Assembly (NCBI RefSeq): GCF_036507355.1
Contig: NZ_AP027877.1
From: Escherichia coli
GTDB lineage: Bacteria > Pseudomonadota > Gammaproteobacteria > Enterobacterales > Enterobacteriaceae
Reading direction: 5' to 3' (one strand)
DNA: 64,000 bases
Below, piece after piece: positions 1-3,000 of the stretch (position 1 is its first letter; every line of letters starts with the position of its first letter). The position numbers were made by a program.

Positions 1-3000
1 CAGGAAGTTGAATTTGGTATTGAGAACGGACCTAAAGGTCCTGCCGCTGTTCATGTAGTGGCGCTTTGAGGTAGACAATATTACAAACCATATTCACTTT
101 AGATGCCCGTGTTGTCATGGTTCCCAGTATAGAACATCATCTTTTGATGTTTCTGACATGAATCCTTTCGGGGCAAAATGTATCTTTTGTAAATCAATGA
201 TGATTACATTTGATAATATTTCACAATACTTAAATGCCAGCCGTCTGTCGTTGGATTTGAAAAAGTGAAAATGAAGGCTCCTTCGGGAGCTTTTTTGCTT
301 GGTGTCTATTCGATGGATACTCACATACTACGGTAACATCATGAAAAAAATCATAGTTTTTTTTAACTCTGAACCAGCAGTGGTAGTGCCAGCGATGACT
401 GGAGTTAACACCATCATGCGTGAATATCCAAATGGCGAAAAAACACACCTTACTGTAATGGCCGCAGGGTTTCCATCTCTGACCGGAGATCATAAAGTCA
501 TTTATGTAGCCGCGGATCGACATGTTACTTCAGAAGAAATTCTGGAAGCAGCAATAAGGCTCTTGAGTTGATTTGATGCTATTGCATTGATAATTCAGGA
601 AAATTCTCTTTGTCTGTTTGTGTAAAATTTAGACTATCGTATGTTGATTATTGCGATGTTTCATCTTATCTTTTACACGTTTGCACCATATAATCGACTT
701 ACTGTGTAACTGGAAAGTCATAACAGACTAAAAGAGGAAATGATGAATATTGAAAACTTAAAAACAAAAGCAGAAGCAGATATTTCTGAATATATAACAA
801 AAAAATTATTGAACTTAAGAAAAAGACCGGGAAAGAAGTTACCAGTATTCAGTTTACCGCACGGGAAAAAATGACGGGTCTTGAAAGCTATGATGTCAAG
901 ATTAATTTAATCTGATGTATTCAATAATAAAATTTATCCATAAACCTCGTTTTTACGGGGTTTTGTTATATTTGAATGGTTCCGAATATCTAAATCACAA
1001 TTGTTGATGATTTTTATTAAACCAATGCAGTCCGGCTCAGGAGTGAGAGAAGCCGGACGTTATGGTTTAGCGTGGTAAGATCTGTGTAGTTTTCTGGATG
1101 CTTTCAGTAAATAGTAATGAATCATCAAAGGTATAGTAATATCTTTTTTGTTCGTGGATATTTGTAACCCACCGAAAAACTCCTGCTTTAGCAAGGTTTC
1201 TTCTGTATTCCTGAAATGTGATCTCTCTGGATTTCAGCTTATTAGAGGTCGTTTCTATAAGATGCCTATCCTTTGAAAATTTGACAGACACAATGTTTTT
1301 TAGGCCCTTTAATAACACTGTATTATCATTTTTTAATACAATATGAACATTCTCTGTGGCTAAATAGTAAATGTAATGTGAGACATTGTGACGTTTTAGC
1401 TCAGAATAAAACCATTGATAGTTTAAATCGTTTCGAACTTTATCAAATATTTGTTTAAAAATGACTACCTGATCCATAGATAAACCTTCCATGTGATATG
1501 AGGGGGCGTAGTCTGCACGATTATCTAAATTGCTTCAATCTGGTCTGACCTGTTTTCTGAGCAATTCAGTAATGTCACTCTTTTCTTTGTTTGCTTCAGA
1601 AGAAACTCTTTTTTCTGAGCACAGTCTCCGGCGGCAGGCTTCAATGACCCAGGCTGAGAAATTCCCGGACCCTTTTTGCTCAAGAGCGATGTTAATTTGT
1701 TCAATCATTTGGTTAGGAAAGCGGATGTTGCGGGTTGTTGTTCTGCGGGTTCTGTTCTTCGTTGACATGAGGTTGCCCCGTATTCAGTGTCGCTGATTTG
1801 TATTGTCTGAAGTTGTTTTTACGTTAAGTTGATGCAGATCAATTAATACGATACCTGCGTCATAATTGATTATTTGACGTGGTTTGATGGCCTCCACGCA
1901 CGTTGTGATATGTAGATGATAATCATTATCACTTTACGGGTCCTTTCCGGTGATCCGACAGGTTACGGGGCGGCGACCTCGCGGGTTTTCGCTATTTATG
2001 AAAATTTTCCGGTTTAAGGTGTTTCCGTTCTTCTTCGTCGTAACTTAATGTTTTTATTTAAAATACCCCCTGAAAAGAAAGGAAACGACAGGTGCTGAAA
2101 GCGAGCTTTTTGGCCTCTGTCGTTTCCTTTCTCTGTTTTTGTCCGTGGAATGAGCAATGGAAGTCAACAAAAAGCAGCTGGCTGACATTTTCGGTGCGAG
2201 TATCCGTACCATTCAGAACTGGCAGGAACAGGGAATGCCCGTTCTGCGAGGCGGTGGCAAGGGTAATGAGGTGCTTTATGACTCTGCCGCCGTTATAAGA
2301 TGGTATGCCGAAAGGGATGCTGAAATTGAGAACGAAAAGCTGCGCCGGGAAGTTGAAGAACTGCGGCAGGCCAGCGAGACAGATCTCCAGCCAGGGACTA
2401 TTGAGTACGAACGCCATCGACTTACGCGTGCGCAGGCCGACGCACAGGAGCTGAAAAATGCCAGAGACTCCGCTGAAGTGGTGGAAACCGCATTCTGTAC
2501 TTTCGTGCTGTCGCGGATCGCAGGTGAAATTGCCAGTATTCTCGACGGGATCCCCCTGTCGGTGCAGCGGCGTTTTCCGGAACTGGAAAACCGACATGTT
2601 GATTTCCTGAAACGGGATATCATCAAAGCCATGAACAAAGCAGCCGCGCTGGATGAACTGATACCGGGGTTGCTGAGTGAATATATCGAACAGTCAGGTT
2701 AACAGGCTGCGGCATTTTGTCCGCGCCGGGCTTCGCTCACTGTTCAGGCCGGAGCCACAGACCGCCGTTGAATGGGCGGATGCTAATTACTATCTCCCGA
2801 AAGAATCCGCATACCAGGAAGGGCGCTGGGAAACACTGCCCTTTCAGCGGGCCATCATGAATGCGATGGGCAGCGACTACATCCGTGAGGTGAATGTGGT
2901 GAAGTCTGCCCGTGTTGGTTATTCCAAAATGCTGCTGGGTGTTTACCGGAGTCGGAAGTTGCCGGACATTGCAGATGAAGGCGCATTACAGAAATGGAGG

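Follow-up and report, generated by a model that had tools for sequence, protein, structure and literature searches.

A one-base contraction of an A-tract in the prophage gene gnsB of Escherichia coli

The window gnsB, its paralogue GnsA and its K-12 counterpart

GnsB is a small protein encoded at a cold-shock locus, and its only known role is to modulate, in multicopy, the composition of unsaturated fatty acids and phospholipids; with K-12 alleles, overexpression of GnsA or GnsB increased unsaturated fatty acids and suppressed fabA6(Ts) and a secG null mutation (Sugai et al. 2001). The chromosomal paralogue GnsA (yccL; PDB 4XO1/4XO2) belongs, like GnsB, to the Pfam family PF08178 (GnsAB_toxin) and is encoded in the cluster cspG-ymcF-ymcE-gnsA. 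The proposal that GnsA and YmcE form a type II toxin-antitoxin pair stems from the structural study of GnsA (Wei et al. 2015). In K-12, gnsB (b1550, ydfY) is located in the Qin prophage and has an A8 tract within an intact ORF of 57 codons, encoding the 57-aa protein WP_001019606.1 (GNSB_ECOLI).

In this work, we analyzed the gnsB locus in a 64,000-nucleotide stretch of E. coli DNA (assembly GCF_036507355.1, contig NZ_AP027877.1; hereafter the window). The window gnsB is identical in DNA sequence to that of K-12 but for one A: it carries an A7 tract and a 43-codon ORF. Direct alignment with the intact allele showed one base absent and equality otherwise over 212 columns. The features referred to below, all on the + strand, are the following:

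341..571, +, ynfN, intact, 76 codons, the 5' neighbour of gnsB; holds a T8 run at 357-364
733..738, +, Shine-Dalgarno-like AGAGGA, read from the sequence, 4 nt 5' of the ATG at 743 and abutting the ATG at 740
743..915, +, gnsB pseudogene of a Qin-type prophage, GnsA/GnsB family, 173 nt instead of 174 through a 1-nt deletion
743..805, +, authentic GnsB N-terminal part MNIENLKTKAEADISEYITKK, 21 residues
799..805, +, A7 homopolymer, the lesion; A8 in intact gnsB according to the alignment
805..915, +, stranded C-terminal part IIELKKKTGKEVTSIQFTAREKMTGLESYDVKINLI in the -1 frame, with the native stop at 913-915
806..874, +, out-of-frame tail LLNLRKRPGKKLPVFSLPHGKK of the shortened product, with a premature stop TGA at 872-874
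817..828, +, AAGAAAAAGACC, the same in frameshifted and intact alleles, with no lesion
942..973, +, terminator-like hairpin and T-rich tail just 3' of gnsB, a consensus match only

The gene order of the window equals that of K-12 (cspI-ynfQ-ynfR-ynfN-gnsB, then ydfO, ynfO, cos and nohA), beginning with the cspI C-terminus at 1-69. YnfQ matches PF23641 (YmcF-like) with 110 bits, and the window gnsB is accordingly preceded by a csp gene, a YmcF-like protein and a small gene, a cold-shock neighbourhood analogous to that of GnsA. At the level of Pfam profiles, no counterpart of the proposed GnsA partner YmcE was recognised in the window: when a cognate antitoxin was sought beside gnsB, the upstream YnfN matched no Pfam family. 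An Rfam scan returned nothing overlapping gnsB.

Both halves of the window gnsB match PF08178 (profile length 54, gathering cut-off 27 bits) far above chance, in different frames: the N-terminal ORF spans profile positions 1-32 (E=2e-13, 50 bits) and the C-terminal frame positions 22-54 (E=3e-21, 75 bits). When the single base is restored, the repaired GnsB covers positions 1-54 with 120.3 bits and aligns with residues 1-56 of GnsA (E=5e-20). No single ORF of some 57 codons spans the whole GnsAB domain, as the reading frame stops after 43 codons. In tblastn searches within the window, this was the single GnsA/GnsB-like locus, split over two frames; no second copy was found, and GnsA itself is absent from the window. 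Judged from its reading frames and profile matches, the window gnsB is thus a pseudogene member of the PF08178 family rather than an intact member. The translations and the two profile matches confirm the GnsB homology that the initial annotation had noticed over two frames at 740-915, and together with the alignment to the intact allele they support its identification of the gene and of a one-base homopolymer inactivation.

The A-tract lesion and its predicted products

The gnsB start codon is likely the second ATG, at 743, because the spacing to AGAGGA fits and the RefSeq 57-aa GnsB begins there. The frame read from 740/743 encodes MMNIENLKTKAEADISEYITKK, then LLNLRKRPGKKLPVFSLPHGKK, then a stop, and the predicted product has 43 aa, made up of 21 GnsB residues and 22 out-of-frame residues. 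The frame read from 742 encodes ...KKIIELKKKTGKEVTSIQFTAREKMTGLESYDVKINLI and a stop. Three details of the first description have to be revised. The frame switch had been located inside AAGAAAAAGACC, which the alignment shows to be unchanged, the indel lying at 799-805; the C-terminal half had been assigned to the +1 frame and is actually in the -1 (= +2) frame relative to the upstream one; and of the N-terminal 26 residues described as GnsB-like, the first 21-22 are authentic, while residues 23-26 (LLNL) are out of frame and resemble IIEL by chance.

In an alignment with PDB 4XO2, the C-terminal half of GnsB (805..915) is better conserved with GnsA than the N-terminal half. Since this conserved half is lost from the shortened product, the A7 allele would be a null or a strong hypomorph and not a regulated switch. 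Altogether, we consider, with a probability of roughly 0.8, that the window gnsB is a genuine loss-of-function allele, one instance of a recurrent knockout of a dispensable accessory gene by homopolymer slippage. Replication slippage would drop one A from the A8 run, which occupies codons 19-21 of gnsB. Such A8 to A7 changes may recur because indel rates climb exponentially with run length, as described for homopolymers (PMC8510543), and A7 would persist because GnsB is dispensable. A little full-length GnsB would still be expected, either by -1 slippage on the in-phase A_AAA_AAA or by transcriptional slippage.

Distribution and recurrence of the shortened allele

The A7 allele of gnsB is a common and recurrent knockout route in E. 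coli, with a frequency of a few percent, ordinary and already annotated. In strain ER1709, PGAP (NCBI) gives the same sequence the label "frameshifted" as a member of the GnsA/GnsB family, and the RefSeq frameshifted gnsB pseudogenes of ER1709, RM10042 and VE-V11-M are exactly the window's allele, as are the 43/44-aa "protein GnsB" entries in GenBank (EGB38208.1, EGX12612.1 and others). With respect to these frameshifted entries, the window has a private SNP 205 nt 3' of the run and the locus is otherwise the same. The allele matched 36 complete genomes at 100% over 361 nt, and 37 over 98 nt. The chromosomal background of the window is a different one, with an identity of about 98% to any of the complete E. 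coli genomes. The present case is chiefly a matter of annotation, in which gnsB is to be listed as a pseudogene with its frameshift in the A8 tract, the designation that identical copies already bear in RefSeq.

The locus was present in 2139 complete genomes. Of the approximately 1470 complete E. coli genomes that have this haplotype, none had A6, 37 had A7, about 1428 had A8 and four had A9; as these are mostly long-read assemblies, prone to homopolymer undercalls, the 37:4 ratio of deletions to insertions may be inflated. Viral contigs (n=56) comprised five A7, 49 A8 and two A9 alleles, and metagenome contigs (n=27), mostly SPAdes-style short-read assemblies, one A7 and 26 A8. In each of these samples, about 90-97% of the alleles were A8. 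At the protein level, the exact shortened product was found in 2216 protein-index blocks and in at least 1000 contigs, and the intact product in 58,140 blocks. The GTDB species-representative genomes were also scanned for the haplotype with A6-A9, and none had it.

A sequencing or assembly artefact, in which the source would really carry A8 and the consensus would have lost one A, has to be weighed against these data. Long-read sequencing and pyrosequencing classically undercall A8 as A7. Older drafts or long-read assemblies are the source of some A7 entries in the databases, and the lengths of both 8-nt tracts, in gnsB and ynfN, co-vary across samples. Nevertheless, (i) the window differs from K-12 by just 13 indels over about 45 kb, and beyond ynfN and gnsB all of them are intergenic or in K-12 pseudogenes, (ii) the other homopolymers of the window are clean, with no coding frameshifts relative to K-12 over that distance, (iii) the ynfN T8 run is full-length and another A-run of the window is one base longer than its K-12 counterpart, and (iv) both the short-read metagenome assemblies and the Logan/ENA collections contain A7 with a frequency of about 3-4%. 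Since there are no other coding indels in the window relative to K-12, we regard an error in this assembly as unlikely.

Several lines of evidence point towards repeated origins of A7. It was found on at least seven distinct +/-300-bp haplotypes, the three commonest of which bear both A7 and A8; on three prophage structural modules or backbones, each with A8 copies too; and on the N5D background (224 contigs). Over a 2.4-kb core, the A7 loci L010 and L011 equal the A8 loci L017 and L021, and the A7 locus L007 equals the A8 loci L002, L013, L014 and L019; the L010/L011 and L007 groups are 5-6 SNPs apart over the same core. We conclude that A7 arose repeatedly, because the haplotypes and the three backbones with A7 also have A8 copies, even though identical flanks of A7 and A8 could stem from recombination instead of separate mutations. 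The natural occurrence of A7, A8 and A9, and of A7 on several haplotypes and backbones also bearing A8, supports the slippage-prone tract proposed in the initial annotation.

Homopolymer instability, proposed phase variation and possible recoding

The neighbouring homopolymers serve as controls for the gnsB tract. In an unbiased viral sample, the ynfN T8 run was polymorphic to a similar extent (8/50 loci, versus 6/50 for gnsB), and the 6-7-nt runs nearby were invariant. No tract-specific instability beyond that of equal-length runs was seen, the neighbouring ynfN T8 varying alike. Because the T8 run varies in this way while the 6-7-nt runs do not, the pattern is that expected of a generic length-dependent mutational hot spot and not of a specialised switch. 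In the same viral sample, the gnsB and ynfN runs tend to be longer or shorter together (Fisher p=0.044), and for some database entries the reason could be the sequencing chemistry or a mutator lineage. ynfN (T7/T8) and the T-run of mgtT are other genes in which single-base changes in runs of at least 8 nt likewise yield "frameshifted" annotations; K-12 itself has ynfN T7, whereas ynfN is intact in the window, with T8. We had considered the frameshifted ynfN of ER1709 as a sign of an error-prone assembly, and dropped it as K-12 MG1655 carries that T7 tract. The fact that gnsB and the adjacent ynfN both flip makes these E. coli prophage genes a clean natural case of homoplasic indels in homopolymers of 8 nt, and advises caution when the presence or absence of these two small genes, or of "GnsAB_toxin" hits, is used as a lineage marker.

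These observations also bear on phase variation, that is, a contingency locus in which the tract would flip reversibly and at high frequency between A7, A8 and A9, switching GnsB on and off as a form of bet-hedging. The tract at 799-805 does lie within the ORF, and its length variants switch frame in both directions. A7 and A8 share flanks on at least three haplotypes and three prophage backbones, in agreement with recurrent origins, and in more than 80 short-read assemblies contigs end exactly at the base preceding the run. Such contig breaks are compatible with mixed run lengths within a sample or with two differing copies. However, the tract is merely 8 nt long, the dominance of A8 extends to every sample, and the like behaviour of the ynfN T8 run leaves nothing specific to gnsB; GnsB, moreover, lacks the roles at the surface or in host interaction that contingency genes typically have. 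We therefore find a phase-variable gene, as the initial annotation had suggested, unsupported by an 8-nt tract whose ynfN counterpart is equally polymorphic and whose 6-7-nt neighbours are not, and very improbable. It is tempting to speculate that the A7 allele is still live, its in-phase A_AAA_AAA heptamer allowing some of the ribosomes or transcripts to regain the frame, and that GnsB dosage within a cold-shock operon is dimmed, heritably and reversibly, through the A8/A7/A9 tract, in which case the unsaturated fatty acid content of the membrane would follow and strains would toggle between full and trickle expression; this, too, is a distant prospect.

A further alternative is that A7 represents a recoded functional gene, yielding physiologically relevant amounts of full-length GnsB by -1 ribosomal frameshifting or by transcriptional slippage. 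In the upstream frame the A7 tract reads A_AAA_AAA (ACA AAA AAA), an X_XXY_YYZ heptamer precisely in phase; wild-type GnsB (...TKKIIELKKK...) would be restored exactly by a -1 slip at 799-805 or by an mRNA with one additional A. In E. coli, A_AAA_AAA gives more than 0.10% of -1 frameshifting without a stimulator (PMC4066793), and in an over-expression vector frameshifting on C-AAA-AAA amounted to 25-60% (PMC1851650). Against this, basal efficiency without stimulators is about 0.1% (PMC4066793), and the RNA from 806 to 900 folds no better than shuffled sequences (MFE -11.5 versus a mean of -14.6 kcal/mol, z=+1.02). The 20 nt upstream of the A-run contain no Shine-Dalgarno-like (GGAG-like) motif. 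The frameshift arrangement is not conserved either, the in-frame A8 form being the overwhelming majority. Programmed -1 sites on A-rich heptamers, such as A_AAA_AAG in dnaX and those of IS1 and IS3-family transposases, have a similar in-phase heptamer to that of A7 gnsB; unlike them, A7 gnsB has no stimulator and the frameshifted form is a minority allele. Functional recoding is thus highly unlikely in our judgement. Within the preferred reading of a loss-of-function allele, slight leakiness of A7 from the in-phase A_AAA_AAA slippery site is nonetheless plausible, and the lesion, by creating a textbook in-phase slippery heptamer, would make this allele a handy natural substrate on which to measure transcriptional slippage or -1 frameshifting without a stimulator. 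Three IS1 copies are present in the window, and IS1 relies on a frameshift at an A-run.

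The gnsB homologue and its lesion

The window opens with 3 kb from the right end of a defective lambdoid prophage of Qin type, arranged as follows.

Genes and sites of the prophage end
plus strand, end of cspI, followed by ynfQ and ynfR
341-571, plus strand, ynfN
740-915, plus strand, gnsB
3' of gnsB, minus strand, ydfO and ynfO
further 3', cos, nohA (Nu1) and a terminase-A/tail-fibre remnant

Translation of gnsB from 740/743 gives MMNIENLKTKAEADISEYITKK and then LLNLRKRPGKKLPVFSLPHGKK up to a stop at 872-874; the frame from 742 gives ...KKIIELKKKTGKEVTSIQFTAREKMTGLESYDVKINLI up to the native stop (913-915). 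The truncated ORF matched positions 1-32 of the 54 in the PF08178 (GnsAB_toxin) profile (E=2e-13), the other frame matched positions 22-54 (E=3e-21), and the protein repaired by one base matched the full profile (1-54) with 120 bits, against a cut-off of 27 bits. Both frames match the family and the match is complete after repair, so the division of a GnsB homologue between two frames by a one-base frameshift is genuine, far beyond chance. This bears out the initial annotation, as does the alignment with the intact allele described below. No second GnsA/GnsB-like sequence was found in the window by tblastn. The start codon is likely the second ATG, at 743, since 4 nt separate it from the preceding SD-like AGAGGA (733-738), a motif that directly adjoins the ATG at 740, and since the 57-aa RefSeq GnsB begins at the second ATG.

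We aligned the window with the intact allele (strain 300709, WP_001019606.1) and with a RefSeq copy annotated as ‘frameshifted’ (ER1709). Across 212 columns, the window differs from the intact allele at exactly one position: following ...GAATATATAAC, it has seven A (A7, 799-805) where the intact gene has eight (A8). The frameshift had been correctly attributed to an A-run, but it is not in AAGAAAAAGACC (817-828), where it had been placed and which is the same in all three sequences. Only 21-22 of the 26 N-terminal residues first taken as GnsB-like are authentic, LLNL being an out-of-frame stretch that mimics IIEL. Moreover, the downstream frame is -1 (equivalently +2) with respect to the upstream one, and not +1 as initially read, because one base is missing.

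In the same prophage end, the terminase-A N-terminal remnant meets the tail-fibre remnant (2686-3538) in a manner unlike that of K-12, to which this junction does not align; among other genomes, this point is arranged in at least three different ways.

Spread and probable recurrence of the A7 allele

Allele frequencies were obtained with queries of 98-99 nt, for which any single difference lowers identity below 99%. Complete genomes with this haplotype comprised no A6, 37 A7, about 1428 A8 and four A9 alleles, and the IMG/VR viral contigs five A7, 49 A8 and two A9, so that A7 ranged across these samples from ~2.5 to 9% and A9 from 0.3 to 3.6%. The haplotype was not found among GTDB species-representative genomes. 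The allele is already known, as PGAP (NCBI) flags it as ‘frameshifted’ in dozens of RefSeq genomes.

Three indirect tests (cleanliness of the window, spread of the allele and agreement with short-read data) make it improbable that the A7 run is an assembly artefact. First, the window differs from the collinear K-12 MG1655 by only 13 indels in ~45 kb aligned; those outside ynfN and gnsB are all intergenic or within genes that K-12 itself has as pseudogenes (mgtT, dgcF), and one A-run is a base longer than in K-12. Alignments of the window with several A7 loci contain no gaps over 2.7-2.9 kb. This indel pattern is not the signature of an assembly that undercalls homopolymers. Second, among complete E. 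coli genomes, 36 share the window allele with 100% identity across 361 nt and 37 across 98 nt, and its exact 43-aa product is present on at least 1000 contigs (NCBI, ENA, Logan, JGI) under names such as ‘protein GnsB’, with 2216 collection blocks indexing the truncated product vs 58,140 for the intact protein. Third, one of the 27 metagenome contigs with the haplotype, mostly from SPAdes-style assemblies, carries A7 and the other 26 carry A8; the short-read data thus agree with A7 as an existing allele.

The A7 allele belongs to more than one lineage. Over a 2.4-kb core, the A7 loci L010 and L011 are identical to the A8 loci L017 and L021, and the A7 locus L007 is identical to the A8 loci L002, L013, L014 and L019, the two groups being 5-6 SNPs apart. 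Grouping of 102 loci by their ±300-bp flanks placed A7 on at least seven haplotypes, the three commonest of which hold both A7 and A8. The N5D background with A7 accounted for 224 contigs, and each of the three prophage architectures (the K-12-like defective remnant, the complete lambda-type head module and the DUF1441/HK97-type module) was found with both alleles. K-12 MG1655 and C600 carry A8, and the K-12 derivative ER1709 carries A7. Recombination could also move the A7 allele between backgrounds, but no SNP is linked to A7; for this reason, repeated A8-to-A7 slippage appears to be the parsimonious reading.

Mutability of the tract and the predicted product

As a control, each homopolymer of at least 6 nt in window positions 1-2100 was scored over all fetched loci. 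Runs of 6-7 nt were essentially invariant, and the second 8-nt run, T8 of ynfN (357-364), was polymorphic (T7, T8 and T9) about as often as the gnsB run. In the window, ynfN is intact (T8, 76 codons), whereas K-12 MG1655 has the T7 form, annotated as ‘frameshifted’. The suggestion that slippage had rendered gnsB phase-variable or inactive therefore holds as regards slippage, but the similar variability of ynfN next to essentially invariant shorter runs points to an ordinary mutational hot spot, in prophage genes under weak selection, rather than to a dedicated contingency switch. Like a contingency locus, gnsB has a tract within the gene, length variants in both directions and homoplasy, but it lacks tract-specific instability. 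Such behaviour is expected of 8-nt runs, since indel rates are known to rise exponentially with homopolymer length (PMC8510543), and it is consistent with the reported scarcity of AAAAAAA in E. coli genes, a bias put down to slippage and to high rates of indels (PMC4066793).

In the unbiased viral sample (L023-L078), the gnsB and ynfN runs tend to change length together, both being shorter or both longer (Fisher p=0.044; T7 with A7 in two loci, T9 with A9 in one). Shared ancestry or linkage, mutator lineages, or a sequencing-chemistry bias in some entries may account for this. More than 80 short-read assemblies contain contigs of ~3 kb with a partial GnsB ending in ...EYI(T) (protein clusters P0005-P0008 and P0010), and the five that were read (L107-L111) all stop precisely at ...GAATATATAAC, one base short of the A-run. 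This suggests that the assembly graph forks at the run, owing either to two copies differing there or to mixed run lengths within the sample.

GnsA and GnsB are 57-residue paralogues known from multicopy phenotypes: their overexpression is reported to raise the content of unsaturated fatty acids and to suppress both fabA6(Ts) and the cold-sensitive secG null (Sugai et al. 2001). The ‘toxin’ label originates in the structural study of GnsA (Wei et al. 2015; PDB 4XO1/4XO2). Since the stranded C-terminal half, FTAREKMTGLESYDVKI, is the most conserved GnsA/GnsB block, we infer that the 43-aa product would be non-functional. Judging by its sequence, the locus is best described as a pseudogene member of the GnsA/GnsB family, one that would work like any other homopolymer-slippage knockout.

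Read in the upstream frame, the A7 run is ACA AAA AAA and forms an in-phase A_AAA_AAA slippery heptamer; a tandem -1 slip, or one A added in transcription, would give ...TKKIIELKKK..., the exact wild-type GnsB. In E. coli, A_AAA_AAA without stimulators has been reported to yield >0.10% -1 frameshifting (PMC4066793), and C-AAA-AAA 25-60% in a T7 over-expression vector (PMC1851650). No stimulatory fold was evident in the 95 nt 3' of the run, which fold worse than shuffled controls (z=+1.0), no SD-like motif was found 5' of it, and the frameshifted arrangement is the minority allele. Hence, of the hallmarks of -1 programmed ribosomal frameshifting, the heptamer is present and the stimulator and conservation are absent, on account of which trace full-length GnsB is likely to be made from the A7 allele but its programmed recoding is very unlikely. 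The locus retains a modest value, both as a naturally occurring case of recurrent indels at 8-nt homopolymers in neighbouring prophage genes and as a ready-made slippery-site substrate that lacks stimulators.

Other features of the window

Among complete E. coli genomes in RefSeq, none exceeds about 98.3-98.8% in its match to the first 25 kb of the window, and the chromosomal part of the window is only about 98% identical to any of them; the source therefore lies outside this collection, as it does outside the GTDB species representatives. The mobile elements of the window and a deletion are as follows.

Mobile elements and deletion in the window
9081-9848, 47006-47773 and 50721-51488, three 768-bp copies of IS1, 99.5-99.9% mutually identical
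35603-41241, 5.6-kb Tn3-family transposon inserted in lsrD, splitting the AI-2 transporter operon
~49324/49325 (within 47006-49867), junction of ~4.2 kb absent with respect to K-12 (43000-47241 of the K-12 locus, L079)

A 9-bp target duplication flanks the first IS1 copy, in which the InsA and InsB' ORFs were read, and this insertion shortens ydfI from the 486 codons of the intact gene to 466. The transposon has ORFs for TnpA (988 aa), a resolvase (186 aa) and an MCP-like product (525 aa), an organisation that is presumably that of Tn1722/Tn1721. The deletion spans the 3' part of an autotransporter pseudogene, hipB and most of hipA, of which only the last ~430 nt remain, adjoining IS1 copies. 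It is tempting to speculate that the IS1 and pseudogene load fits a Shigella-like or IS-expanded E. coli lineage.

The T-run of mgtT/mgtS (16570 region) is 2 nt shorter than that of K-12, whose mgtT is itself annotated as ‘frameshifted’, and positions 16446-16658 match the Rfam sRNA family STnc560 with 277 bits. Finally, ~500 bp at the 5' end of dgcF (yneF; 27502-27999) are absent in K-12, where dgcF is annotated as being without its N-terminus; the window may thus carry the ancestral, longer form of this gene.
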